A stretch of 64,000 nucleotides of DNA from an uncultured bacterium (lineage in GTDB: Bacteria; Patescibacteriota; Dojkabacteria; SC72), in contig CAIMEL010000004.1 of the NCBI GenBank assembly GCA_903840015.1, positions 97,452-161,451 on the forward strand. Reading direction: 5' to 3'. The notes under the pieces are model-generated. The model saw only the letters and a list, made by a program, of their open reading frames with translations. It was not told the DNA's origin and ran no database searches. Below are positions 14,860 to 62,792 of the stretch, in pieces (the first letter of the stretch is position 1; each line of letters begins with the position of its first letter). The position numbers and the translations under genes are program-made.

Positions 14860-16317
14860 ATGAACCAGATAGAGAGATTAGAAAATAGAATAATAAAAAT
14901 TGCTCCAAGGAGTTTCAAGTCAGATATTCAAAATGCCATTGCATATGGGAAAACTATCTACAAAAACAGAACCAGATACAATGGAGATCCGATGATTCTT
15001 CACACACTAAGTCTTGCAATTGAATTAGAGAAACTTCATTTAGATACAATCACCATTCTTGCAAGTATATTACATGAAGTAGAAATAGATGAAGAAACAG
15101 AGAAATATATAAAAGCTCACTTTGGGGATACTGTTCTCTACATCATCCGAGAAACTAAGAGGATTAAGGATATAACGAAAGCCCAGGATACAGATCCAGA
15201 GATAATAATAAAATACATATTAAACAGTTCTTCAGATTTGAGACCAATCATTCTTAAAATAGTAGATACCTTACAAGACATTCATACAATCAAAAACATT
15301 CCAGAAGAAGATAAAAAAGACACACTTAACAGGGCCCTCAACATATATTCTACCCTTGCTGAATATTTACATTTTACAGAGATAAAGAGAGAGATTGATG
15401 AATATGCTTTCAAAGAGCTTTTGCCTCTTGAATATCAGAGTATATCTCAGAAATTAGAAGAGATGGGAATCAATGAGAACTTGTATCGAAAATATGTTAA
15501 CAAATTAAAGCAAAATACAGAGAGTATAACTCCGAAGCCAAGAATTGAAGGTAGGATAAAAAGTAAATACAGTATCTACAAGAAACTTAAGAAGTATGAG
15601 AAAGAATGGATTAACCCAAAACTGGATAGCCTAAATGACCTTTTAGCTTTTAGATTAATAGTGAAAAATGTAGAAAGCTGCTACAAAGCAGTCGAGAAAC
15701 TGATGGACTCGTCAGATTTAAATTATGATAAATTTAGTGATTACATTTCAAACCCTAAAAAGAATGGCTATATGGCTATGCATTTCACACTAGTTTTTCC
15801 TGAAATAAACAATAGGGAGATAGAGATACAAGTCTTAACGGAAGAAATGCACCATACCAACACATACGGTTCAGCTTCACATATTGCGTACAAAGCAAGC
15901 CAATCAAGATATGCAAATCCTTCAAATGAATACAGTTGGGTAAAAGATATAAATGATCGACTTGAAGATTGTAAAAATCAATCAACAAGAGAAAAAGATA
16001 TCCCTCTAAAAGTAGATATCTTTCAAGAAGATATCTTTGTTCTAACACCAAAGATGAAAATCATTCCTCTACAGAAGGGAGACACTGTGTTAGACTTCGC
16101 GTACAAACTACACACAGCAATAGGTAATAGTGCATCATCAGCTAAAGTAAATGGACAACCCAAAAGTCTAGCACATATATTGCAAACGGGGGATGTAGTA
16201 GAGATTAAAACAGATAAAAACAAACAGTGTCAGAAAGAAAAGGCACTCAATTTCTCTAACTCAGAAAGGACAAAATCAAAGATAAAGAAGTTTTTAACAA
16301 GAAGCTTAAAAAAATAA
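14860..16317 (+). CDS. Short RelA/SpoT-homologue (p)ppGpp synthetase with HD-like, synthetase and TGS domains and no ACT/RRM domain.
   Basis: The HD-like region is ILHTLSLAIE...LASILHEVEID. The synthetase motifs RIKSKYSIYKKLKK, DLLAFRLIV, GYMAMHFT and EIQVLTEEMH are present. The TGS region is IFVLTPKMKIIPLQKGDTVLDFAYKLHTAIG. Confidence 0.75.
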   Translation: MNQIERLENRIIKIAPRSFKSDIQNAIAYGKTIYKNRTRYNGDPMILHTLSLAIELEKLHLDTITILASILHEVEIDEETEKYIKAHFGDTVLYIIRETKRIKDITKAQDTDPEIIIKYILNSSSDLRPIILKIVDTLQDIHTIKNIPEEDKKDTLNRALNIYSTLAEYLHFTEIKREIDEYAFKELLPLEYQSISQKLEEMGINENLYRKYVNKLKQNTESITPKPRIEGRIKSKYSIYKKLKKYEKEWINPKLDSLNDLLAFRLIVKNVESCYKAVEKLMDSSDLNYDKFSDYISNPKKNGYMAMHFTLVFPEINNREIEIQVLTEEMHHTNTYGSASHIAYKASQSRYANPSNEYSWVKDINDRLEDCKNQSTREKDIPLKVDIFQEDIFVLTPKMKIIPLQKGDTVLDFAYKLHTAIGNSASSAKVNGQPKSLAHILQTGDVVEIKTDKNKQCQKEKALNFSNSERTKSKIKKFLTRSLKK

Positions 16318-32973: not shown

Positions 32974-33582
32974 TTGATGAAAGCAAGGCAAGATGCAATA
33001 TTATTCCTTTCTCGCAACACTGCACTAAAAGAGCTCCTCCGGAAGAAGATTAACCACTTTAAAGATTCTGTACTTTTAAACAAAATATCTCTTGTAAATA
33101 TAGCAGAATACAACATTCGAGTAATTATTCTTGATGAACAAACAGATTATAGCCATATAAAAGAGATAGATTGTAAAAACATAATAGTTGTAATTAATAA
33201 TAAATCTCAAGAAACATACAATCGTATTTTTGAGAACGATATTTACCATATCTTAGAAGTTCCAATTAATGAGAATCTTTTATGCTCAATCCTGCTTAAA
33301 AGTTTTGAATTGCTCCAAGACAGATCTTCTAGAAAGATTAAGTATCATGGTTTAACACTTGATCTTGAATCAAACTTCGCTATATACAAAGATTGTAAAG
33401 TCAATTTAACACCAAAGGAAGCAGATGTTCTGCATCATCTAATTACAAAAGAAAAACAATTATCTCTCTCTGCCAGGTATTTACAAGTTGTAACATCCAG
33501 AATTAATCGTAAGTTTAAAACATGTACAGATACAAAGATAATTAGGAGTAGGTATGGGTATGGATACTATTTAGCAATTTAG
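32974..33582 (+). CDS. OmpR/PhoB-type winged-helix DNA-binding protein with a degenerate (pseudo-)receiver N-terminal domain.
   Basis: The C-terminal region LTPKEADVLHHLITKEKQLSLSARYLQVVTSRINRKFKTCTDTKIIRSRYGYGYYL fits the trans_reg_C consensus LTxKEfxLL...R..LRkKl...I.TvRGvGY. No phospho-acceptor Asp context was recognised in the N-terminal half. Confidence 0.5.
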   Translation: MMKARQDAILFLSRNTALKELLRKKINHFKDSVLLNKISLVNIAEYNIRVIILDEQTDYSHIKEIDCKNIIVVINNKSQETYNRIFENDIYHILEVPINENLLCSILLKSFELLQDRSSRKIKYHGLTLDLESNFAIYKDCKVNLTPKEADVLHHLITKEKQLSLSARYLQVVTSRINRKFKTCTDTKIIRSRYGYGYYLAI

Positions 33583-36185
33583 ATCTTTTTCTTCCACTGA
33601 ACTATTTTGTTCAGAGCTTCAATCGGAGTGAGATTATCTACATCTATTTTCTGTATATCCATTTCTATCTCTGACTGCTTCGCAGTGAAGAGGGGATATT
33701 GATATACATTTGAGAAAGGTTTGTCATCTTTAGATGCTTTAGAGTATATATTGGTCTCTCGAATCTGATTCTTGCCTGTAAACATACTTTTTTGTTCAAA
33801 ACTCTCCAGTATCTCATTTGCTCTCTTTATTACCTTAGATGGCAATCCAGCCATTTTTGCAACATATATTCCATAACTTCTATCAGTCCCTCCTTCGACA
33901 ATTTTTCTTAGGAATATGACCTCTCCCTTCTCTAATTCTTCCTCAACGAGAACATTGTAATTTTTTACCGAGTTAGGATATTTTTCTGATAACTTCAGAA
34001 GTTCGTGATAATGGGTAGCAAAAAGAGTTCTCGCTTTTATATCCACTAGAAGATACTCTGCAAGAGCCCAAGCGATACTAACTCCATCATATGTACTAGT
34101 TCCTCTTCCAATTTCATCAAGAATTATCAGACTGTATTTCGAGGCGTTATTAATAATATTTGAAGCCTCCTCCATTTCAACCATAAAGGTACTACGTCCA
34201 TGAGAGAGATCATCTGCGGCACCAACTCTGGTGAATATTCTATCAACTAAGGATATTCGTGCTGAAGACGCTGGAACAAACGAACCGATCTGAGCCATCA
34301 AAACAATTGTTGCTACCTGCCTTATGTATGTTGATTTACCAGACATATTGGGCCCTGTAAGAACACCCATATAACAATCTTTTCTATTTAGGTATGTATC
34401 GTTCGAAATGAATTCTTCATCTTGAATACTTTCGACAATTGGATGCCTACCTTTCTTTACTTCTATTACACCATCTCCATCACCCATCTCTAAAATATCT
34501 GGTTTTACATAGTTTTTTGTAATCGCAGTAAATGCAAAAGAGGCGAAGACATCAATTGTGCTAATAATGAAGGAGAGGTTCTGTATTTCCTGCAAATGTG
34601 TGAGAAGAGAATCACGAAATTCTAGAAACAATTTCAACTCTAAGTTACAAAGATTATCATGCGAATTCAATATAATACTTTCGCGTTCTTTTAATTCCTC
34701 TGTTATATATCTTTCACTGCTAACAAGCGTCTGTTTACGAATATACCTAGCTGGGACCTTTGCTTGATGTGTTTTAGTTACTTCTATGTAATATCCAAAT
34801 ACTTTATTGAAATTTACCTTAAGTGAAGTAATACCAGTTTTAATTCTTTCCTCCTCTTCGAAATTTTTTATCCAACTCTTGTTATCACCACTTAAGCTTC
34901 TCAATTCATCAACCTCTTTACTGAAACCAGTCTTAATGATATTTCCTTCTGAAATAGTAAGTGGTGGTTCATCTGCGATGGTATGGGATATTCTATCTAT
35001 CACATCTTGGAGAACAGAAAGATTTATTTCTTCATACCTAATTTCCAGATTTTTTCTTAGTAAATCGACTATCTCTAAGGACGCTATTAAAGAATACTCT
35101 AATGCTTTCAAATCTCTCGCATTTACCCTGTTCAACCCAATCTTTCCAACTATCCTTTGTATATCATTTATCCCTTCTAACTTTTCTCGAATGGATGTTA
35201 ATGATTCTCTGTTTTCCGTAAATGAAGAAACAAACTTCAATCTCTCATCTATGGATTTTTTCTCTATGAGGGGATTTAGCATCCAGGAGTAGAGAAGACG
35301 AGTTCCCATACGAGTCTCTGTTTCATTTAAGACTGAGAAGAGAGAGTTTGAGATGTCTCCAGTATATGAGTTGGAAACAAGCTCTAAGTTTCGTATAGTC
35401 GCTCGATCCAGTAGCATTGTGTTTCCAAGTCTTACTTTTCTTGGTTTCTGTATATGCAACGGATTCATCAACTGAGTATCCTCTATATGCTTGATCATCA
35501 TAGCTACAGGTATTAGTTCTTCTGAATCTGATGGAATGTCTATAGATTCTGTAGATTTGATATCAAAAAACGTCTTTATGATTTCTGCAGAATATGGAAG
35601 ATTCCTTGTAGCCTTCTCTATGAACTGTACTGGTAGAGAGGAGAGCGTTTCAAAAGATTCGCCCTCTAGTAACAATATTTCTACGGGAGAGAAAGAAGTT
35701 AGTACTTTGTCTACAATATTTTTAGAATCATCTGCAGTTACTACTAAGAATTTACCTGTAGAGATATCAGCAACAGATACATAGATATTTTTCTTACTAA
35801 AAAAGAATGCAACAATATTGCTGTCTTTTATGGAACTAGCCTGTTCACCATCTACCGTTCCTGGAGTAACAATTCTAGTTACTCCACGCTTGACTATACC
35901 CTTGGCGAATTTCGGATCTTCCAATTGATCAACTATTACAACAGAACATCCTGCTTCTATTAATTTGGGAAGATATTGATCTAATGCCTTGTGTGGAAAT
36001 CCCGCGAGTGGGATAGCATTGGTGCTTTTATCTCTCTTGGTCAGTGTGATATTTAATATCTTAGAAGTAAGCTTGGCATCTTCTCCAAAGGTTTCGAAAA
36101 AATCACCCATACGAAAAAGGAGTATTTTGTCAGGATACTGTTTCTTAAAACTTGTATACTGTTTCATCATTGGAGTGCTATCCAT
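33579..36185 (-). CDS. mutS: DNA mismatch repair protein MutS.
   Basis: The N-terminal mismatch-binding region reads MMKQYTSFKKQYPDKILLFRMGDFFETFGEDAKLTSKILNITLTKR. The ATPase Walker A TGPNMSGKSTYIRQVA and the MutS signature STFMVEMEE are present. Confidence 0.9.
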   Translation of the reverse strand: MDSTPMMKQYTSFKKQYPDKILLFRMGDFFETFGEDAKLTSKILNITLTKRDKSTNAIPLAGFPHKALDQYLPKLIEAGCSVVIVDQLEDPKFAKGIVKRGVTRIVTPGTVDGEQASSIKDSNIVAFFFSKKNIYVSVADISTGKFLVVTADDSKNIVDKVLTSFSPVEILLLEGESFETLSSLPVQFIEKATRNLPYSAEIIKTFFDIKSTESIDIPSDSEELIPVAMMIKHIEDTQLMNPLHIQKPRKVRLGNTMLLDRATIRNLELVSNSYTGDISNSLFSVLNETETRMGTRLLYSWMLNPLIEKKSIDERLKFVSSFTENRESLTSIREKLEGINDIQRIVGKIGLNRVNARDLKALEYSLIASLEIVDLLRKNLEIRYEEINLSVLQDVIDRISHTIADEPPLTISEGNIIKTGFSKEVDELRSLSGDNKSWIKNFEEEERIKTGITSLKVNFNKVFGYYIEVTKTHQAKVPARYIRKQTLVSSERYITEELKERESIILNSHDNLCNLELKLFLEFRDSLLTHLQEIQNLSFIISTIDVFASFAFTAITKNYVKPDILEMGDGDGVIEVKKGRHPIVESIQDEEFISNDTYLNRKDCYMGVLTGPNMSGKSTYIRQVATIVLMAQIGSFVPASSARISLVDRIFTRVGAADDLSHGRSTFMVEMEEASNIINNASKYSLIILDEIGRGTSTYDGVSIAWALAEYLLVDIKARTLFATHYHELLKLSEKYPNSVKNYNVLVEEELEKGEVIFLRKIVEGGTDRSYGIYVAKMAGLPSKVIKRANEILESFEQKSMFTGKNQIRETNIYSKASKDDKPFSNVYQYPLFTAKQSEIEMDIQKIDVDNLTPIEALNKIVQWKKKI

Positions 36186-36228: not shown

Positions 36229-38766
36229 TTACTTTCCAAGTATAAGCTTACTCTCCTCTTCAGAGACAACTTTTCTTGCATCAATAATATCTTCTGCAGT
36301 CACAGATACACCATATATACCAACTTGAACACAGTAACGTAGTAGAGGTTTACAATTTTCAACTACAACAATTACTCTCTCTGCTTTTGGTTTTACAACT
36401 TCCAAAACATTATCTAAAACTTTAAACACACTGTGTCTGGTCATATCATATTTTGCATCAGTATCATCCATCTTGAAACCTTGCATCTGTCTAACAATCC
36501 TAGGCATATTAATAATTAGACCATCTATCTTAGTATTTATTATTTCATCTGCAAGGATAATCTCTGCAGGATTGTCCAGGATGGCATAGATTTTAAAGGT
36601 TGATGTTCTCCTTAATTTCTCCCCTAAAAGCTGTTTCTTGAACTCCTTCATCATCTCATCATTCATAGGAGAGTGTATTGAGATTGAAACATTTCTCTTG
36701 TTGTATACATTTCGAATACGCTTTACTATCTTAATAACTCTCTTCAAGAGATCCAGATTATTCAGATAGTGGGTTGCTCCATAGACTTCGTCCGGTAGAC
36801 TCTGATTTTCATATATTTTACCCTTTTCTAAATCTCTAAATTCTTTAACTTTGGCGGAACCTATGGATATAATGACTTCGTCACCATGAACGAGGTTAAC
36901 ATACTCCAATATTTTTTCTGATATCTTTTTGGAATAATCTACATACTTCTTATCCTCGACATAGGCCATTAGATGTCTCTTCTCTTCTATGAGTATCTTA
37001 TCCAGGTCTATATAAACCAAACCATGAGAATTACCGATATAGTCAAAAAGCTTCTCACTCTCTAGATTAGCCAAAGAAAACACCTTTGTGGCCACTGGGG
37101 GTAGAGTCATATCTCTTGGCGGAATTTTTTCTCCTTCCTTAGGTATAACTTCAGCGTCTAGCAAATCAACCCCAGAAATATCTCCTTGGCTATACGCCTC
37201 TACAACAGGATGGAGTGGAGTAGGCTCAGGCACAGCGACATCTTTGTAGATTGTCCCTGCATTTCCATCTATTTTAACCCAATTACCATTCTTTAATAGC
37301 TCAGATGCATTTCCAGTTCCAACAATTGCAGGAATCCCAACCTCACGACAAAGAATAGAAGTATCACTTGTTAAACCACCTGTGTCCATAATGACACCTC
37401 CACAAGAGAGAATCATTGATTCCATTTCAGATGAATACTTCTTTATTAACAAGATATCACTCTTACTAAACTGCTTGTCTACAGGTGAATCTACTACAGT
37501 TATCTTACCTATTGCGACACCAAAACTCGCACCAATACCAGAGATTATGAAATCATCCTGTTTGACACTTGGGCTTAGTTTTGTATCAGATTCCCGTTTC
37601 GCAGAGTATATTAACTTCTCTAATCGTTTCGTTATCTCATTGCTATTCTTGTTAACCAAACGCTTAGCATCAGACATCGCCTGATTAACAAGTATATTCT
37701 CTCCTCTGTACTTTTCTAGAATTCCAAGTAATAACTCCCTTACATTTTTTCTTGAAACAACATTCTCAAAAGTTACAACATTTGGAGAAAGTAATGTCTC
37801 GTACATTGATTTATTCTGTAAAACCCAAAAACGCCCACCACAAAGTACCCATTCTACATTTTGAACCATACGAGATTTATCTTCAATTATCAAAGCTATC
37901 TTGGAAATCTCCTGCATATCCTTATCATCTAATTTTTGTCTATGACTCCATGCCGCGGATATCTTTATCTTCTCAATATTTTCACCATCTTTTTTACCCT
38001 GCTTCATAGTTCTCACCTTCATCCATTCCTGAGGAGCGATATGTTTTTCTACCAGTGTAAGATTCTTCTTGTTTAAGAGATACGTATCAGGTGTTATCTC
38101 TCCCAAAGAAATAACATCTCCCAAACCGAATACAGCTTCTATACTCAATTTACTGTTATCCTGAGTAATAGGGTCTACTGTAAAAGCAACACCGGAAACC
38201 TCTGCTTGTACCATTCTCTGAACAACAACTGCAACCTTAACATCCAATAGATCTATTCCCATCTTAGAAGCATACATAACAACATCATCAGTAAAGAGAG
38301 AAGCATAGACCCTTTTAATTGAATCTTTTAATTCTTTAAACCCTCTGACATTCAGTTCCGTCGTTAAAATACCCGTAAAGGAAACTTTCTCATTTTCTGG
38401 AAAAACTACAGATGATCTTACTGATACCCAAGCATCAGTAAAACCAGACAGACGTGTATACCCACTCAGTATTTCTTCTTCAGCTTCTTTTGAAAACTCA
38501 GACTTAAGGAAGGCGGCTTCTACATCACTTCCCTCTGGATTTCGATTGTTTGATAAAAGTTTCTTCTCATTTTCCTCAAGGCAGGGAAAAACAAATTCTG
38601 GGAAAAGCTTACTTGAAACAACAAAAAATTCTGGAACAGGAACATCCATATCCTTAAGTTTGAAAAGACTAACACCTTTCCTGCCTACAAGATTCTCAGA
38701 GAGTTGGGTAGAGGAGTAATCCTCATAGAAGAAGACATTCTTTTTCTTTGCACTAACATTATCCAT
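36229..38766 (-). CDS. PEP-utilising enzyme family protein (PEP synthase / pyruvate phosphate dikinase-like). The catalytic phospho-His position is occupied by Asp.
   Basis: It has an N-terminal ATP-grasp/PPDK_N region (GRKGVSLFKLKDMDVPVPEFFVV), a central swivel domain GGLTSDTSILCREVGIPAIVG (consensus GGRTSHAAIIAREhGIPAVVG) and a C-terminal TIM-barrel-like region. Confidence 0.65.
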   Translation of the reverse strand: MDNVSAKKKNVFFYEDYSSTQLSENLVGRKGVSLFKLKDMDVPVPEFFVVSSKLFPEFVFPCLEENEKKLLSNNRNPEGSDVEAAFLKSEFSKEAEEEILSGYTRLSGFTDAWVSVRSSVVFPENEKVSFTGILTTELNVRGFKELKDSIKRVYASLFTDDVVMYASKMGIDLLDVKVAVVVQRMVQAEVSGVAFTVDPITQDNSKLSIEAVFGLGDVISLGEITPDTYLLNKKNLTLVEKHIAPQEWMKVRTMKQGKKDGENIEKIKISAAWSHRQKLDDKDMQEISKIALIIEDKSRMVQNVEWVLCGGRFWVLQNKSMYETLLSPNVVTFENVVSRKNVRELLLGILEKYRGENILVNQAMSDAKRLVNKNSNEITKRLEKLIYSAKRESDTKLSPSVKQDDFIISGIGASFGVAIGKITVVDSPVDKQFSKSDILLIKKYSSEMESMILSCGGVIMDTGGLTSDTSILCREVGIPAIVGTGNASELLKNGNWVKIDGNAGTIYKDVAVPEPTPLHPVVEAYSQGDISGVDLLDAEVIPKEGEKIPPRDMTLPPVATKVFSLANLESEKLFDYIGNSHGLVYIDLDKILIEEKRHLMAYVEDKKYVDYSKKISEKILEYVNLVHGDEVIISIGSAKVKEFRDLEKGKIYENQSLPDEVYGATHYLNNLDLLKRVIKIVKRIRNVYNKRNVSISIHSPMNDEMMKEFKKQLLGEKLRRTSTFKIYAILDNPAEIILADEIINTKIDGLIINMPRIVRQMQGFKMDDTDAKYDMTRHSVFKVLDNVLEVVKPKAERVIVVVENCKPLLRYCVQVGIYGVSVTAEDIIDARKVVSEEESKLILGK

Positions 38767-38803: not shown

Positions 38804-39952
38804 CTAAACAATACCTTTAGCTTTCAATTTTTGCAAGTCGATATAGAATTCGTAGAGAATCTGAAGAATAACCATCGAAGGAACGGCTAGAAGACCTCCA
38901 ACTGGACCAAAGAAAATCAAAAATATTATAACTCCCAACATAACTAAGATAGGTTTTAAACCAACTGCATTAGACATAACCTTCGGGACTATCAAAGTAT
39001 TCTCTAATTGTTGATAGAGAGTGAAGATTGAGAGAAATATTATGGAGCTCCAAATACCCGTCGTTATTAATGCCACCAAAGCAACAACCAATGCACCAAA
39101 TGTTGCTCCGAACTGAGGAATTAAACAAGCTAAGCCAACAAAGAGTGCCAATGGAATAGCGAATGGAACATTTAGAATCGAAAGAAGAATTCCGGCAAAA
39201 AGTGTTACTAGGAAACTTACAGTAGCTTGACCAAGAACCCAACTACCAAGTTTCTTCTCTACATCTATTACTAATTTTTTTACTCTTTCTCTCTTAGGAT
39301 CCGAAACAATTCTAATCAATAATATATCGAAGAAAGAATCGTGCTCTAGAACAAGGTAAACGGAGAAAATGATTGAAGTCAAAAGTAGTGCGAAAACGCT
39401 AAAGAAGCCAGAGAAAAATCCTGCAATATTCTTTACATTATCCATTGTAGGAAGAGCTTTCAAAGTATCATAGATATATGGAGATACAATATCAAAATTG
39501 AATTGATGGTTACCGAGTTTGAAGTTCTGCAAAAATTGGACAAGATTCTCAAGCCAGGTAGGTAACACTTTTAACAATTCAGAGAACTGTGTTACAAAAG
39601 GCACAAACACTAACGATATCAAGCCTAATATGATCAAAGTTAGTAAAAAGTATGCCGTAAAAACTGCAAATCCCTTACTAAACTTCTTCCCTTCCAACCA
39701 AAGTACAACAGGACGCATAGAGGACATAAAGACAAAGCCTAAGAAGAGAAACAATGCTATTGAAAGAATTTCTTTCCCAAGGAATGCAACAGCAAGAAGA
39801 AAAATAACAAACAAAATCGTCTTCATAGAGAAGTCTATCGTTATTGTAGAATTATTTTTCCCAACAGAAGAGAGAATTTCTCGAACCTCACGGCTCCTGC
39901 TAACATTCTCTTCCGTTACTTTTCCACTTTTTACAGAAAATATTTTTGCCAT
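38804..39952 (-). CDS. AI-2E (PerM/UPF0118) family transporter-like membrane protein.
   Basis: The 382-aa protein has an 8-TM topology, a central soluble insert and the conserved C-terminal helices typical of the AI-2E family. The assignment is by architecture and weak motif resemblance only. Confidence 0.45.
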   Translation of the reverse strand: MAKIFSVKSGKVTEENVSRSREVREILSSVGKNNSTITIDFSMKTILFVIFLLAVAFLGKEILSIALFLFLGFVFMSSMRPVVLWLEGKKFSKGFAVFTAYFLLTLIILGLISLVFVPFVTQFSELLKVLPTWLENLVQFLQNFKLGNHQFNFDIVSPYIYDTLKALPTMDNVKNIAGFFSGFFSVFALLLTSIIFSVYLVLEHDSFFDILLIRIVSDPKRERVKKLVIDVEKKLGSWVLGQATVSFLVTLFAGILLSILNVPFAIPLALFVGLACLIPQFGATFGALVVALVALITTGIWSSIIFLSIFTLYQQLENTLIVPKVMSNAVGLKPILVMLGVIIFLIFFGPVGGLLAVPSMVILQILYEFYIDLQKLKAKGIV

Positions 39953-41125: not shown

Positions 41126-41150
41126 AAATGGGGGAGATTTACTCCCCCAT
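41121..41150 (-). terminator. Rho-independent terminator on the minus strand after the 317-aa gene. The stem is tgggggag/ctccccca with a short loop, and a U-tract follows in minus-strand orientation.
   Basis: Plus-strand positions 41128..41150 read atgggggagatttactcccccat. The preceding aacaaaaa gives TTTTTGTT after the hairpin on the minus strand. Confidence 0.65.
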
Positions 41151-45678: not shown

Positions 45679-45755
45679 GGACGATTAGCTCAGCTGGTTA
45701 GAGCACTACATTGACATTGTAGGGGTCACTGGTTCGATTCCGGTATCGTCCACCA
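45679..45755 (+). tRNA. tRNA-Val (anticodon GAC), with encoded CCA.
   Basis: The cloverleaf was folded manually. The acceptor GGACGAT pairs with ATCGTCC. The D-arm is GCTC-AGCTGGTTA-GAGC. The anticodon stem is CTACA/TGTAG with loop TTGACAT. The T-arm is ACTGG-TTCGATT-CCGGT, and ACCA is at the 3' end. Confidence 0.9.
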
Positions 45756-57204: not shown

Positions 57205-57921
57205 TTACTTACTATCTACTTTTAGGAAATTATCTAAAACAAAAGATCCGTAGAAAGAGAAAGTTACATCTTGAGAACTCTTCCCAACAGCCCTTAGAGA
57301 TATCTTTTCTATTCTCGAATCATTACCCAAAAGATACCATAGTTTAGCAACATCCTCTAAACTCTGTGCTTTCCCAGTGAATTCAATCCCATTCAATCCT
57401 GTAAAGGCAAAGGCCGTTAATGTACAATTGGTTTTACTAGTAATACCATTAATATATTCAAGTACTGCCTTTGCAGAATATCTACCTTTTTCAATATCAT
57501 TATACAAATATATTCTGTCTAAGATCTCATTGTTTCCAATAATCTTTTGAGATAACCCCTCAACCTGAGCTTCACTTTTTATTAATTTCTCCTTCTCAGC
57601 ATTCAGCTGAAATTTAAAAACTATGTTCAAGCCGACAATGAGAATAGAGATAACAAAAAGAATAATGAGGCTTACTATTGCACTCATATTAATCTTTTTC
57701 TTTTTTTCTTCTGTCTGAACCTCTTCCTTACTAAGGATTGGGATGAGATTAATACCACCATCAGATGCAATCACAGTATCTGGCACCTCACTTTTGGGTT
57801 TCAATGGGTGAGCAAGAGGAGTGGTTGCATTCTTTCCAAGGGTATCAGTGGCTGCAACAGGTACTGGTTTTGCCTGAGGTTCTATCTGCTTATTGTTATC
57901 AACAGGTGGAGTATTATTCAT
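57205..57921 (-). CDS. pilN: Type IV pilus assembly protein PilN-like, with a ~50-aa Pro-rich N-terminal extension.
   Basis: The conserved PilM-binding motif INLIP (consensus INLLP) is followed by a single TM and a periplasmic-type domain. It overlaps pilM by 8 nt. Confidence 0.65.
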   Translation of the reverse strand: MNNTPPVDNNKQIEPQAKPVPVAATDTLGKNATTPLAHPLKPKSEVPDTVIASDGGINLIPILSKEEVQTEEKKKKINMSAIVSLIILFVISILIVGLNIVFKFQLNAEKEKLIKSEAQVEGLSQKIIGNNEILDRIYLYNDIEKGRYSAKAVLEYINGITSKTNCTLTAFAFTGLNGIEFTGKAQSLEDVAKLWYLLGNDSRIEKISLRAVGKSSQDVTFSFYGSFVLDNFLKVDSK

Positions 57922-58945
57922 CTTTCATTGCTAAACCAATAGCAACCGAATAGGAGGGTCCGCTCTTGGCTATTATGTCCTTAAATTTATTGTCAACTGC
58001 AATATTGTTCCATGGCATAGACATCGTAGCGTTTACACCAAGACTCTTAGATACATACTCCTTCAATCCAGGTAAAAGGGCTCCATCGCCATTAAGCATA
58101 TAGTCAGTAGGAGCAACAGAGAGAGTTCGGTTTTTGTAAAATTCAACACCTCTTCTTACCTCAACCATAATGGATTCTACAATTGGACTCAAAACTGAAT
58201 ATATTTTGCCCTCCAAAACATTCTCAACAAGTCCATAATTTCGTTTAAATTCTTCAGCTCTCTGATACTCAAAATTGAATTTATTAATAACAGCCTGAGT
58301 TAATGAGTCCGAACCGATAGCTATACTCTGAGAGAAAACTAAATATCCATCGGAGAGAATACTCATATCAGTACTATTTGCACCAAAATCTAACATTATT
58401 AAGTCCTTCTTGCCACTTGATTTATACATAGCTCTTCCCATTGCAACAGATTCCGTCTCTATAGCTATTAAATCTAGGGAAGACAAAACAGCAATATTGA
58501 TATATATATCGATAACTTTTCTTGGGGCGGCAACAACCAAAACTCTCGGAGCATTCTTCTCTGTATTAAAACCTATTGGTACATAACTAAGTTGAACTTC
58601 ATTCAATGGCATAGGTATGTACTGTTTAGCTTCAAAGTACACCGCATCCTTTAATTCTTCTGCTTTCACACCAGGGAATTCTAAAAACCTAGTAAAGACT
58701 GAGAATTCAGGTAAAGCCATAACGACATTCTTATTCTTAATACGAGAAGAGTCATAGAGCTTTTTTAATACATCCGCAAGTTTACGTTGATCACTCTTAT
58801 CTTCACTATTAATAACTCCCTTTGGAGTCAGTTGAGATCCAAGATTAACTAACAATGGATTTGCAGAGGATATACGACTAAGTTCAACAGCTTTAACTGA
58901 ATGCGTTCCGAAGTCTATACCAACATGATCGGGCAGTTTGGCCAT
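57914..58945 (-). CDS. pilM: Type IV pilus assembly ATPase-like actin-fold protein PilM.
   Basis: The N-terminus VGIDFGTHSVKAVEL is an actin/FtsA-like phosphate-1 motif. It is ~343 aa and lies immediately upstream of pilN. Confidence 0.75.
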   Translation of the reverse strand: MAKLPDHVGIDFGTHSVKAVELSRISSANPLLVNLGSQLTPKGVINSEDKSDQRKLADVLKKLYDSSRIKNKNVVMALPEFSVFTRFLEFPGVKAEELKDAVYFEAKQYIPMPLNEVQLSYVPIGFNTEKNAPRVLVVAAPRKVIDIYINIAVLSSLDLIAIETESVAMGRAMYKSSGKKDLIMLDFGANSTDMSILSDGYLVFSQSIAIGSDSLTQAVINKFNFEYQRAEEFKRNYGLVENVLEGKIYSVLSPIVESIMVEVRRGVEFYKNRTLSVAPTDYMLNGDGALLPGLKEYVSKSLGVNATMSMPWNNIAVDNKFKDIIAKSGPSYSVAIGLAMKDE

Positions 58946-58990: not shown

Positions 58991-61270
58991 CTAGAAAGGT
59001 TTCAAACCAATCTCGCTTTTGAAAACTAGTTTCTCACCACCAAAAAGAGCATTTATCAATTTACCATATTTGACATGATTTACAACATTTACAACAGGGT
59101 AGGGGTGCCTATCTTGTAAATGTAGTTCCCTAGCGATGTTTATACTAACACCAGTATCAGGATCTTTTCCAAAAGCTATTAAACCTCCTTCAACTATTAA
59201 AGCATCTTTCCTTGCATTCAGTGGTTTGTTCTCATTCAAAATATTTATGACACCACCACTCATCAGATAGGCTTCAATAACATCAAATCCTATTGAGGTA
59301 GAAGTTGTATGATCATCACCTTTTCCTATATTTATATTTCCATTAACAATGAAAACACATGCATCGGATTTTTTTACTCCCTTAAAATCAGGTTCAATAT
59401 TTAAATCTCCCTCAATCAAAAATACTCCTCTTCCATCACAGAGGAAACCTTTACTGACAGCTAGATTCCCCTCTACATTAGCAACATAAACCTTGTCCGT
59501 ACAGTATCCTTCCAAGCAGTAATCGGAAAGTTTACCATTTAACGATTTAATAGCAGGATCTATCTGTGTCATCACATCAGGAGAAACATTCTTTAATTTC
59601 TTAAAATAGGTATAGTAAATATCTTTAGTATAAGGATTTGTAATATTTGTAACTCTATACGAAGCATTTCTGTTAAGTAATATTCGAAGATTAAGAACTG
59701 AATCAACAGTACCGGTAAGAAGTTCAGTGGAAAGATCTGCTGTACTCTCTGTGAACCCATACTCAAAGAGATCACTCAGGAGCCATACATTACTTGATAG
59801 TTCACGAACATCAACACTAGTCCCTCCTTGTGAGAAGAAGAATCCACCTCGACTTTGAATCCATTCGCCTAATTTGAATCTTAATTGTTTAGTCGTTGAA
59901 TTACATGCCAAATCAAATGTTGTAACGAAGAAATCAATATACCCACCTCGATTGAGACCCAATCCCATTTTTTCTTCTCGATTTGCAAGATTTAATACCT
60001 TCCACAAAATATTATCTCCAGTAAGTTTTCCTACCAAATCAGATTCTTTCTGGAAGTTCAACAGAAAGGTACTACCATCAGGATAAGGGTATGTTATTTC
60101 AGCATTCTTTATCATATCCTGTTTCAATCGGAAAGCATTTCCGACAGAGTTGGTAATCCTAGTTTCATTATCCTGAGAATTCCAGAACAAACTAACCTCA
60201 GTTGGTCCATTGATTGTCATAGACAAAGGATCAACAGTAGGGGGGGTTAAATCAACTGTCCATTGATCACCTTTTCTCCAATCCTTGTAGAATCTAATCT
60301 GATTAGCTTTGTAAGGAAGCTTATTCAGCTTATCTGGATTTGTATAATTGTCATACGGAGTGAACCCAAACGTATCATTGGCCATAGCATATACATCATA
60401 TTTACCTTGATAGACCTGCTCATAGATATCAACTTTAGAGTCCTTGTTTAAGAACTCAATATTGAAATTGCTAACAACCTTATTAGTTTGCGAAAGAGTT
60501 AAGTTGGTAATTCTTACCATAGCTTTTCCAGTAGGTCCTTCAATCGTAAAATCAGAACCAACCTCAGCTACTTTTACCCAGTACATTTTGTCACCCAAAT
60601 ATGGAACGTAGATCTCTTTCCAGGAACCACTTACCTTTCGAACCATAAAACCAAAACTATAGTTATTTCTTGTCTTACCTGAAGATCTGCTTGCTCCTAG
60701 CCACTGTATCTCTGTAGGAGTTGTACCTGCCTTACTCATCCAGAAATACACAGCTTCAAGGGTCTTAACATCTACAGAGCTTGAATATTTAGCCTCGACA
60801 GCTACAGGGTTGTTAATACTCAACCCTGACGATATATTGCTCGTACAATCATAAATATTTGTATTGGACGGTTTGACGGGCTTGAATTCTACCTCGGCAC
60901 CTGTCCAGTTTGGATATTCATCACAATCTTCTTTCGCAGGATCACAGTAAGGAGGTATTTCATAACACATTCCAGTTTTTGTTTCGCCACATCCCTTATC
61001 ACACGATACACTCTTTGCTGGATATCCAGTATTGGTACTTGTAGTGCCTTCGGGACAAGCAGGTAGGGTACAGCTGTGAGGCGTACATGTGTCATCATCA
61101 TCTCCATCATCACAACCTGGAGAATTACAGGGAATAAAAGTCCTAGGAGGGGTACTCCAGTATGCTTTACATGCAGCATCACAAGGAGTACAACCATCAG
61201 CAGAAACTTTGTCAACAAAGAAAAGACTTAGAGTGAAAAAGATTGAGATTAAAATAAAAAGTTTTTTCAT
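58991..61270 (-). CDS. Large secreted protein of unknown function, with an N-terminal Cys-rich acidic region and a C-terminal beta-helix-like repeat region.
   Basis: The signal peptide MKKLFILISIFFTLSLFFVDKVSA is followed by 20+ Cys in the first ~110 residues, including DDGDDDDTC. The C-terminal ~170 aa has repetitive V/I-x-G-x-L/I patterns. It is 45 nt upstream of pilM on the same strand. Confidence 0.55.
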   Translation of the reverse strand: MKKLFILISIFFTLSLFFVDKVSADGCTPCDAACKAYWSTPPRTFIPCNSPGCDDGDDDDTCTPHSCTLPACPEGTTSTNTGYPAKSVSCDKGCGETKTGMCYEIPPYCDPAKEDCDEYPNWTGAEVEFKPVKPSNTNIYDCTSNISSGLSINNPVAVEAKYSSSVDVKTLEAVYFWMSKAGTTPTEIQWLGASRSSGKTRNNYSFGFMVRKVSGSWKEIYVPYLGDKMYWVKVAEVGSDFTIEGPTGKAMVRITNLTLSQTNKVVSNFNIEFLNKDSKVDIYEQVYQGKYDVYAMANDTFGFTPYDNYTNPDKLNKLPYKANQIRFYKDWRKGDQWTVDLTPPTVDPLSMTINGPTEVSLFWNSQDNETRITNSVGNAFRLKQDMIKNAEITYPYPDGSTFLLNFQKESDLVGKLTGDNILWKVLNLANREEKMGLGLNRGGYIDFFVTTFDLACNSTTKQLRFKLGEWIQSRGGFFFSQGGTSVDVRELSSNVWLLSDLFEYGFTESTADLSTELLTGTVDSVLNLRILLNRNASYRVTNITNPYTKDIYYTYFKKLKNVSPDVMTQIDPAIKSLNGKLSDYCLEGYCTDKVYVANVEGNLAVSKGFLCDGRGVFLIEGDLNIEPDFKGVKKSDACVFIVNGNINIGKGDDHTTSTSIGFDVIEAYLMSGGVINILNENKPLNARKDALIVEGGLIAFGKDPDTGVSINIARELHLQDRHPYPVVNVVNHVKYGKLINALFGGEKLVFKSEIGLKPF

Positions 61271-61271
61271 A

Positions 61272-62792
61272 TTATCTCAAGAGTAAATTAATCAATTCAA
61301 CTTGATCTAAAACAAAGTATTCCAATTCAAAACCTTCTGGAACATATGAATACAAGACAGAATATTTCCTGTCTAAACTTCTCTCCAAGAGACTCTGTAG
61401 AGACTCATCGAATTCAATCATATTGTTCATATCTAAGAACCTAATCGCAGCGATATAGTTAATATTTTCTAAGAGCGCAAGATCTCTCGACATATTGTTT
61501 TCACCCACGTAATTAAGGATCCTATCTATATCACCCTTGTAGTATGAATCACCAGTTTCTCGATATAACTCTTCTGCAGCTAAACCTATGTAGTAAATTT
61601 CCTGAGATTGTTTTTTAGAAATTCCAAAGGTATATATTAAATTCTGATATCCCTTTTTTAACAGTGCCTTATCTTCCTTAGAAAGAGATCCATCTTCGGC
61701 AGAGAGCCATTCGATCATCCCAAGTAACAAATCGGTATTTAGTCTTACATAGTTCTCACCACCAACAAAACCCGATTGTTGCCTACTTGTAGTAAGTACT
61801 ATCTCCTTCTCTAATATCGTAGAAAGACTTACCAATTTATTGTTATCGCTAAGCCAGTTTGACTCATACGATTTATACAAAGTCTCATCACACCAAGTCA
61901 GAGCATCTTCTTTCCAGTTAGTACTAAAAACATCTATACAATCTTTGCCACAACTCTCTATATTCCGAACAAAACTGTGCACATCATCACAGCTCGCCCC
62001 TCCATATTTCTTTATCTCAAACTGCCTCTTTGAATCCAATTCCGAACTTAAGAAATTCGCCAAATCTATTCTTTCCTCCTGCCCATATATATCAAAGGTA
62101 TTACTTAATGTTACTAATATTTTAAAGAAATATCTTCCAACAAGATATTTTGGAACTACAACCTCATTATCAATATCGACAAAAACATTCCTGTTCGTCG
62201 CATCAGTATAGAACAGTAACGCCAAAGGATGTATATCTTCTTCCGTATTTAATTTACGAATCCAACTAACAAGATTCTTTACCAAATCTCTTCTATTCTC
62301 TGCTAGACTTAATTCCTGATTCGTAATATTCCAACTAACAATGGAAGCTACAGGATCTACATAATTAAATGAGAAAAATTTCCTAATTCCCAAGAGTAGA
62401 GAAGAGTAGAGATCCTCTTTTTCGAAAACTATACCAAGTTTGGTTGCCTTGCCTTTCTGGACACCGATTATTGAAGGATGATCGCTTAGGATTGTTGGCA
62501 ATTCTATATTCCTTGCAGTTCCTTCAATATCAACATAATTGATCTTCACAAATTCTTCACCAATAACAATGTCTGTTAAAAGAAACTCCTGTGTTAAAGT
62601 TATACGAGAAGCACCTTCACAATTAACTTTAAAACCACTTTCTTGAAGACTTTTAACATTTTTGTAAACTGAACAATCCTTTTGATATGCCAGACCTAAA
62701 TAGAACATTCCTGAGATAGTGAGTAGTACAACAGCAGCGACAAAAAGTAGAATATAGGTAATTATTTTTCTCTTAGGCTTTGGATCATACAT
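61272..62792 (-). CDS. Membrane-anchored (N-terminal TM) protein of unknown function, 506 aa.
   Basis: An N-terminal TM (IITYILLFVAAVVLLTISGMFYLGLAY) is followed by a large soluble domain with no recognised motif. The stop is 1 nt from the start of the 759-aa gene. Confidence 0.5.
   Translation of the reverse strand: MYDPKPKRKIITYILLFVAAVVLLTISGMFYLGLAYQKDCSVYKNVKSLQESGFKVNCEGASRITLTQEFLLTDIVIGEEFVKINYVDIEGTARNIELPTILSDHPSIIGVQKGKATKLGIVFEKEDLYSSLLLGIRKFFSFNYVDPVASIVSWNITNQELSLAENRRDLVKNLVSWIRKLNTEEDIHPLALLFYTDATNRNVFVDIDNEVVVPKYLVGRYFFKILVTLSNTFDIYGQEERIDLANFLSSELDSKRQFEIKKYGGASCDDVHSFVRNIESCGKDCIDVFSTNWKEDALTWCDETLYKSYESNWLSDNNKLVSLSTILEKEIVLTTSRQQSGFVGGENYVRLNTDLLLGMIEWLSAEDGSLSKEDKALLKKGYQNLIYTFGISKKQSQEIYYIGLAAEELYRETGDSYYKGDIDRILNYVGENNMSRDLALLENINYIAAIRFLDMNNMIEFDESLQSLLERSLDRKYSVLYSYVPEGFELEYFVLDQVELINLLLR

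Follow-up and report, generated by a model that had tools for sequence, protein, structure and literature searches.

Phosphoenolpyruvate (PEP) synthases and pyruvate phosphate dikinases (PPDK) are built from an ATP-grasp domain, a mobile swivel domain that bears a phospho-carrier His within the motif GG(x)TSH, and a C-terminal TIM barrel with the residues for PEP, pyruvate, and Mg, in this order, whereas kinases of the rifampin phosphotransferase (RPH) type consist of an ATP-grasp domain, a substrate domain, and a C-terminal swivel, all of them with His. The ATP and Mg residues of RPH have been identified by experiment as Lys22, Arg117, Thr136, and Glu297 (PMC4844700). Moreover, the regulatory (di)kinase VadK (Rv1127c) of Mycobacterium tuberculosis, which derives from PPDK and has lost the PEP/pyruvate function, constitutes a precedent for the repurposing of a dikinase to regulation through its ATP-grasp and swivel domains; it has no C-domain at all, keeps the catalytic His422, and autophosphorylates, and its H422D form, an experimental phosphomimetic, did not complement (PMC13400623). 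In metabolic reconstructions of candidate phyla radiation (CPR) bacteria, PEP synthase has been proposed as a substitute for the often-missing pyruvate kinase in lower glycolysis (PMC7304191), and Dojkabacteria are thought to rely on a minimal route from phosphoglycerate to pyruvate to acetate (PMC5113843). The subject of this work is a ppsA-like gene on the minus strand of a 64,000-nucleotide stretch (the window) of contig CAIMEL010000004.1, from an uncultured member of the CPR lineage Dojkabacteria (WS6), whose 845-residue product has Asp468 at the position of the phospho-carrier His. This protein is very probably not a PEP synthase but an Asp variant that extends through the whole lineage and whose PEP site is dead, and the best reading of the gene is that it descends from an archaeal-type PEP synthase and was repurposed in Dojkabacteria.

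Compared with the archaeal multimeric PEP synthases (EC 2.7.9.2; 8a8e and 9dae) and with bacterial PpsA (2ols), the protein has the same folds in the same order, ATP-grasp, swivel, and TIM barrel, as seen in the AlphaFold2 (AF2) model and in Foldseek searches, in which 2ols was the top match and PPDKs, 9dae, and 8a8e were among the best. Both archaeal enzymes match over the full length (phmmer E-values of 2e-60 and 8e-53; profile E-value of 9e-86). The PPDKs (1kbl, 1dik, and 2r82) share the three-domain swivel architecture and the reaction-centre positions (Foldseek E-value of 1e-29), whereas their sequence match is limited to the swivel domain (E-value of about 1e-9). Pfam recognizes PPDK_N with 203 bits, against a gathering threshold of 27, and the PEP-utilizers domain at residues 434–504 with 60.6 bits, against 23.1. 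The NCBIfam equivalogs for PEP synthase (NF005057 and TIGR01418) align end to end with the protein, which nevertheless falls outside both families (301.3 bits against 598, and 288.7 against 739.75). The RPH-type kinases, including RPH itself (5fbs/5hv1), HpeI (9goj), and PigC/RedH, have a homologous ATP-grasp domain (E-value of 4e-38) with the same ATP residues, whereas the protein follows the order of PEP synthase, with a central swivel (residues 404–508), and reaches 173 bits of the 999 required by the RPH models. No Pfam domain of the enzymes that use phospho-Asp (response regulators, HAD, and P-type ATPases) was found, and Asp468 lies in a PEP-utilizers swivel fold.

The preliminary description of this DNA, made from the sequence alone, had read a three-domain PEP-utilising enzyme with Asp in place of the phospho-His, encoded by a GAT triplet that a single base change would turn into CAT, and these claims hold. 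Nucleotides 37380..37318 of the minus strand read ggt ggt tta aca agt gat act tct att ctt tgt cgt gag gtt ggg att cct gca att gtt gga, and replacing the G at the first base of the GAT codon with C yields CAT. When aligned with PDB chains by phmmer and by a family profile, Asp468 stands opposite the His of GGRTSHAAIVSRELGIP in 8a8e and of GGMTSHAAIVSRELGIP in 9dae, where the canonical motif is GG(R/M)TSHAAIVSRELGIP, and likewise opposite the His of RPH. In the AF2 model, Asp468 opens the helix 468–476. The possibility that the conserved His is placed elsewhere, which could have overturned this assignment, finds no support, since the swivel domain has no invariant His at any other position of the family alignment.

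That one base change would suffice to restore His could suggest an ordinary PEP synthase altered by a wrong base call, an assembly fault, or a point error, an option that the preliminary description had kept. The relatives rule it out, and its probability is practically nil. A protein-database search gave 120 homologues with 55–99% identity, and Asp occupies position 468 in all 121 sequences of the aligned set, including a 99%-identical protein cluster found on four other contigs from independent assemblies; their source names, where given, are Candidatus Dojkabacteria, WS6, or generic ones such as "bacterium". Moreover, 94 relatives were identified when one genome per species was scanned, and among the 80 loci retained (41–78% identity), 79 encode Asp and the remaining one, L072, encodes Glu (GGLTSELAILCREFGIP). 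Across the collected loci, the codon at this position is GAT in 70 cases, GAC in 13, and GAG in 1; Asp is thus written with either of its codons, and it is the amino acid that is selected. Furthermore, restoring His would not restore the enzyme, because the PEP/pyruvate site is also gone. In addition, many contigs (among L004–L083) that carry the Dojkabacteria-type gene and synteny come from metagenome-assembled genome records titled "uncultured Candidatus Saccharibacteria bacterium", a label that is probably generic or wrong.

The C-terminal barrel retains its fold and has lost its PEP/pyruvate site. The AF2 model (mean predicted local distance difference test score of 77.8) contains the eight barrel strands, and Foldseek gives template modelling (TM) scores of 0.79–0.81 against the domains that bind PEP in 9dae and 8a8e, whereas the relative arrangement of the domains in the model is unreliable because its predicted TM score is 0.44. 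At the residue level, PEP-utilizers_C reaches 16.3 bits, under the cut-off of 22.8, and the residues for PEP, pyruvate, and Mg that PEP synthases and PPDKs carry there are replaced (Table 1). Thus, the earlier view of an intact barrel stands for the fold and not for the site. Across 75 full-length species-level sequences, the set used for counts of residue invariance, the canonical PEP/pyruvate-site Arg, Arg, Asn-Asp, and Cys are missing in every member. Twelve PPDK positions (K22, R92, E323, Q335, R337, H455, R561, R617, E745, N768, D769, and C831) were mapped by motif context, following the established literature on PPDK; six of them are kept, namely, the ATP-site K, R, E, and Q and two barrel positions with a conservative change of E to D.

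The reaction of PEP synthase seems, therefore, to have been lost, because Asp has taken the place of the phospho-carrier His and the barrel has lost its PEP/pyruvate/Mg residues, and the protein is predicted from these replacements not to form PEP from ATP, pyruvate, and H2O (or Pi). A PEP-utilising dikinase with an alternative His carrier would agree with the three-domain architecture, with the full-length alignment to PEP synthases, and with the name of pyruvate, water dikinase given in JGI and some NCBI records. However, this explanation is highly improbable considering that the swivel domain lacks an invariant His, that the canonical PEP/pyruvate residues are absent from all 75 sequences, and that the equivalog scores lie at about half of their cut-offs or below. 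The labels "pyruvate, water dikinase / phosphoenolpyruvate synthase" are, accordingly, unsafe for the members of this family.

In contrast with the barrel, the ATP-grasp domain preserves the nucleotide and Mg site of PEP synthases and PPDKs, except for the changes of Arg to K319 and of Asp to N303. K30, R117, T136, Q183, M185, E305, and Q317 are invariant in the 75 sequences, and four of them (K30, R117, T136, and E305) correspond to Lys22, Arg117, Thr136, and Glu297 of RPH. Thus, the N-domain, which had been described as intact, is largely so with respect to its ligands, whereas its reaction centre has undergone the clade-specific changes G29R, Arg to K319, and Asp to N303. Relative to PEP synthase, the phosphate loop is GRKG instead of GGKG, the equivalent of R337 is Lys, and the linkers are 2–10 times longer. 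K319, which is Lys in 75 of 75 sequences, occupies the place of the Arg of the canonical LQxR motif, presumably R337 of PPDK as assigned by motif. Three changes occur together at the reaction centre (GGKG to GRKG, QSR to QNK, and TSH to TSD): the triplet R29, K319, and D468 is present in 46 sequences of the Asp clade, and G, R, and H are present in 23 canonical ones. In canonical enzymes, the counterparts G29, R319, and H468 meet at the β/γ-phosphate of ATP.

The extent of the family was examined with an exhaustive HMMER search of 1.84 billion cluster representatives. Among its best 150 matches, 47 swivel domains have Asp at the His position, in proteins of 685–1044 residues that form one clade with several subfamilies in a quick neighbour-joining tree; this monophyly is provisional, since the tree carries no support values. 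The subfamilies include a core (840–870 residues), long forms with expanded linkers (900–1040 residues), and a short group (685–754 residues) with the motif GGxN(S/A)D, which keeps the ATP-grasp domain and in which a Pfam scan does not detect PEP-utilizers_C. Searches started from two distant members returned labelled matches from Dojkabacteria and one "Nomurabacteria", followed by canonical archaeal PEP synthases and a canonical PEP synthase of Patescibacteria. The linker between the ATP-grasp and swivel domains has about 80 residues in the protein of the window and up to about 285 in its relatives, compared with about 20–35 in canonical PEP synthases.

Constraint has been relaxed in a domain-specific manner. 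When the columns with a conservation of 90% or more among 26 canonical PEP synthases serve as reference, the ATP-grasp domain of the Asp clade keeps 24 of 43, the swivel 6 of 24, and the C-domain 2 of 53. In pairs of sequences matched at about 46% ATP-grasp identity, the swivel is 56% identical and the C-domain 46.5% between canonical enzymes, compared with 37.5% and 26%, respectively, between members of the Asp clade. The ATP-grasp domain of the clade is conserved as well as that of canonical PEP synthases. Moreover, 17 columns are conserved specifically in the Asp clade, 16 of them in the ATP-grasp domain (E24, R29, S33, F47, F109, W113, P123, Y154, Q187, D217, V218, P245, K266, I269, W273, and K319) and the other being D468, with none in the barrel. 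These columns and the co-variation of the triplet suggest that Asp468 and the ATP-grasp site function together and that the barrel has ceased to be a conserved acceptor site. According to the best reading of these patterns, the strongest remaining selection acts on the nucleotide site of the ATP-grasp domain and on Asp468.

The loss of catalytic residues in two of the three half-sites and the expanded, poorly conserved linkers could also correspond to a functionless remnant, a pseudogene in the making. However, decay of this kind is very hard to reconcile with open reading frames (ORFs) of 685–1044 residues that remain intact in over 90 species-level genomes with sizes of about 0.6–1 Mb, with 99 columns invariant over the 75 sequences at identities down to 40%, with an ATP-grasp domain conserved at the canonical level, and with a fixed genomic position. 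The protein is likely important to these uncultivated bacteria, since 845 residues are kept in such small genomes and beside mutS in nearly all relatives.

The ATP-grasp domain probably still binds a Mg-nucleotide, judging from its conserved residues alone, and the swivel could offer the carboxylate of Asp468 to the ATP site, where it may act as a mimic of phospho-His, as a pseudo-substrate, or as a carboxylate that serves as a metal ligand or a base. The protein would then behave as a nucleotide-dependent switch or a slow ATPase, with the barrel as a scaffold and with an output that would be regulatory or structural rather than metabolic, possibly linked to the co-located mutS. This mechanism, a nucleotide-dependent switch without a phosphoryl relay, is the one favoured here and is about as probable as not. 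The precedent of VadK and the use of its H422D form as a phosphomimetic support the repurposing of the dikinase, with the difference that Asp is natural and fixed in the family described here and was engineered in VadK (PMC13400623).

Several points weigh against a switch of this type. A functioning catalytic site would explain no less well than a mimic why Asp is almost absolutely conserved and why two neighbouring residues of the reaction centre have changed in concert. In the core family, the barrel is conserved at former active-site positions (D587, D589, D731, P755, and E803), which could mark a new acceptor site. Three isolated members of the clade have Asn (P0132 and one other sequence) or Ala (P0138) at position 468, and these exceptions weaken the models that need an indispensable carboxylate. 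Finally, the adjacency to mutS may be mere collinearity inside one lineage.

The main alternative to such a switch is an aspartyl-phosphate relay, in which the ATP-grasp domain would phosphorylate Asp468 to an acyl-phosphate and the swivel would deliver it to the barrel or to a partner, with a new acceptor or water as the destination. Activation of Asp or Glu carboxylates of proteins and peptides is performed by ATP-grasp enzymes such as RimK, LysX, and the graspetide ligases, and acyl-phosphate formation is generic chemistry for this fold. A relay would agree with the conservation of Asp in 98% of the clade, with the retention of T466-S467 in the core family, with the invariant ATP/Mg ligands, with the concerted change of G29R, Arg to K319, and H468D at the reaction centre, and with a catalytic face of the core-family barrel where new residues have become conserved, most of them acidic (D587, D589, D731, and E803), to which H598, R685, R691, K710, and R720 can be added. 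However, the barrel site is not conserved across the clade, as reflected by the 2 of 53 canonical columns and the absence of clade-specific ones in the C-domain, and it is unrecognisable in the short subfamily; the swivel and the C-domain evolve far faster than the ATP-grasp domain; and Glu, Asn, or Ala replaces Asp468 in isolated members. In addition, canonical PEP-utilising enzymes attack the β-phosphate of ATP, and we know of no precedent for the acyl-pyrophosphate that the same attack by Asp would imply. The relay is rather unlikely, albeit with appreciable weight, and its more elaborate form, an "Asp-swivel" machine in which an ATP-grasp domain re-tooled by G29R and R319K passes the acyl-phosphate to a remodelled barrel or to a partner such as MutS, is somewhat more doubtful still. 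If a relay did operate, phospho-Asp (or phospho-Glu) would serve as the carrier for the first time within the PEP-utilising superfamily.

Literature searches for His-less or Asp-bearing homologues of PEP synthase and PPDK found none describing a natural carboxylate at the phospho-His position, and none of the curated NCBIfam models claims this family. The case thus consists of a natural, lineage-wide carboxylate in place of phospho-His in a swivel dikinase, accompanied by two co-changed residues and a relaxed acceptor domain, and it offers a test of whether a His-less swivel dikinase becomes a pseudoenzyme switch or turns to acyl-phosphate chemistry. Moreover, since the Asp variant seems unable to supply the PEP/pyruvate step, inferences on the metabolism of Dojkabacteria based on PEP synthase need another enzyme.

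Other proteins without the swivel His, or with several swivels, were observed in the same searches. A second set of PEP synthase-like proteins close to the Asp clade (P0150, P0156, P0160–P0162, P0165, P0169, P0172, P0183–P0185, and P0203) keeps the ATP-grasp residues and has a fully degenerate, His-less swivel motif (e.g., SSDSSARL and GTDSYGII), and one of its members, P0165, retains a PEP-utilizers_C domain of 110 bits. Thus, phospho-His was lost on more than one occasion, or its loss has taken more than one form. Many giant proteins of 1000–2309 residues (P0179, P0191–P0201, P0192, and others) combine one ATP-grasp domain of the PPDK_N type with two to four His-bearing swivels and have no PEP-utilizers_C, an architecture unfamiliar to us.

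Table 1. Features of the Asp-variant gene, of its product, and of the adjacent genes in the window (aa, amino acids).
Feature	Position	Strand	Basis
PEP-synthase-derived three-domain protein, Asp variant (845-aa ORF)	36229..38766	-	Pfam, NCBIfam, phmmer
ATP-grasp (PPDK_N) domain, aa 25-319	37810..38694	-	Pfam, alignment
R29-K30 codons, phosphate loop GRKG (canonical GGKG)	38677..38682	-	alignment, co-variation
K319 codon, at the canonical Arg of LQxR	37810..37812	-	alignment
Long predicted helix, aa 342-391, in the expanded, poorly conserved ATP-grasp/swivel linker	37594..37743	-	AF2 model, alignment
Swivel (PEP-utilizers mobile) domain, aa 404-508	37243..37557	-	Pfam, AF2 model
Signature GGLTSDTSILCREVGIPAIVG, aa 463-483	37318..37380	-	translation and alignment
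GAT codon of Asp468, catalytic phospho-His position	37363..37365	-	translation, alignment, model
C-terminal TIM barrel, aa 558-845	36232..37095	-	Pfam, AF2 model, Foldseek, alignment
Canonical Arg of GLLRxE replaced by D587			
Canonical Glu of GLLRxE replaced by D589 (conservative)			
Canonical Arg of RTLD replaced by S634			
Canonical Arg of MLGxRG replaced by Y662 (Y, H, or F in the family)			
Canonical Glu of mlEvP replaced by D731 (conservative)			
Canonical Asn-Asp of GTNDLTQ replaced by P755-R756			
Canonical Cys of iCGq replaced by V801			
mutS, 868 aa, MutS domains I-V, 43 nt downstream of the Asp-variant gene	33579..36185	-	conserved neighbour
AI-2E family transporter gene, 37 nt upstream	38804..39952	-	conserved neighbour in 76/83 loci
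Strong terminator-like hairpin ATGGGGGAG-TAAAT-CTCCCCCAT followed by a T run, upstream of YibE/F	41128..41150	-	consensus scan alone

On the minus strand, the order of genes is YibE/F, the AI-2E transporter, the Asp-variant gene, and mutS, separated by gaps of 30, 37, and 43 nucleotides. A consensus scan found no terminator-like sites between these four genes, which may, therefore, form one transcription unit. Of the 80 loci whose sequence extends far enough downstream, 74 have the start of mutS no more than 1.5 kb downstream and on the same strand (estimated median gap of 64 nucleotides), and in three further loci mutS lies 1.7–2.4 kb away. The pairing with mutS is kept in the two most divergent subfamilies despite different upstream neighbours, and also in the long and the P0340/P0339 subfamilies, whereas it is absent at a canonical PEP synthase of the CPR (P0354) and at a more distant Asp group (P0182). 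However, the entire region is collinear among relatives, and its neighbours are housekeeping genes (AI-2E transporter, YibE/F, MutS, HisRS, PBP1, PheRS, sortase, and trigger factor); because of this collinearity within the lineage, a functional tie to mismatch repair is a lead and not a finding. A role in a defence system was also considered and is unsupported, since a PADLOC scan gave no match.

The pair formed by the ppsA-like gene and mutS tolerates interruption, as indicated by an IS200/IS605-type Y1 transposase gene (151 residues; L001 10583–11038) inserted between both genes in L001 and L002; the same gap of about 590 nucleotides is present in L022 and in L025, the latter being the same contig as L001. 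At its 3' end, mutS converges with an ORF of about 200 residues (32974..33582, plus strand) that overlaps it by 4 nucleotides and has no Pfam or PADLOC match; this ORF is conserved in place in L001 (13728–14342) and L003 (13183–13866). In genomes of the short subfamily, genes for the large subunit of RuBisCO and for iPGM lie a few kb from the ppsA-like gene and mutS (L086 224–1552; L085 12640–14229), a proximity that fits the nucleoside/RuBisCO route described for WS6.

Elsewhere in the window, two ORFs on the minus strand, 58991..61270 (759 residues) and 61272..62792 (506 residues), have no Pfam match and are situated immediately upstream of a gene for a PilM-like protein (57914..58945); they may encode divergent pilus or secretion components. 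A RelA/SpoT homologue with HD_4, RelA_SpoT, and TGS domains is encoded at 14860..16317 on the plus strand of this reduced genome, and the remainder of the window is devoted to housekeeping functions, including Mur ligases, PBPs, aminoacyl-tRNA synthetases, RecG, ClpB, RNase III, and one tRNA-Val (45679..45755).

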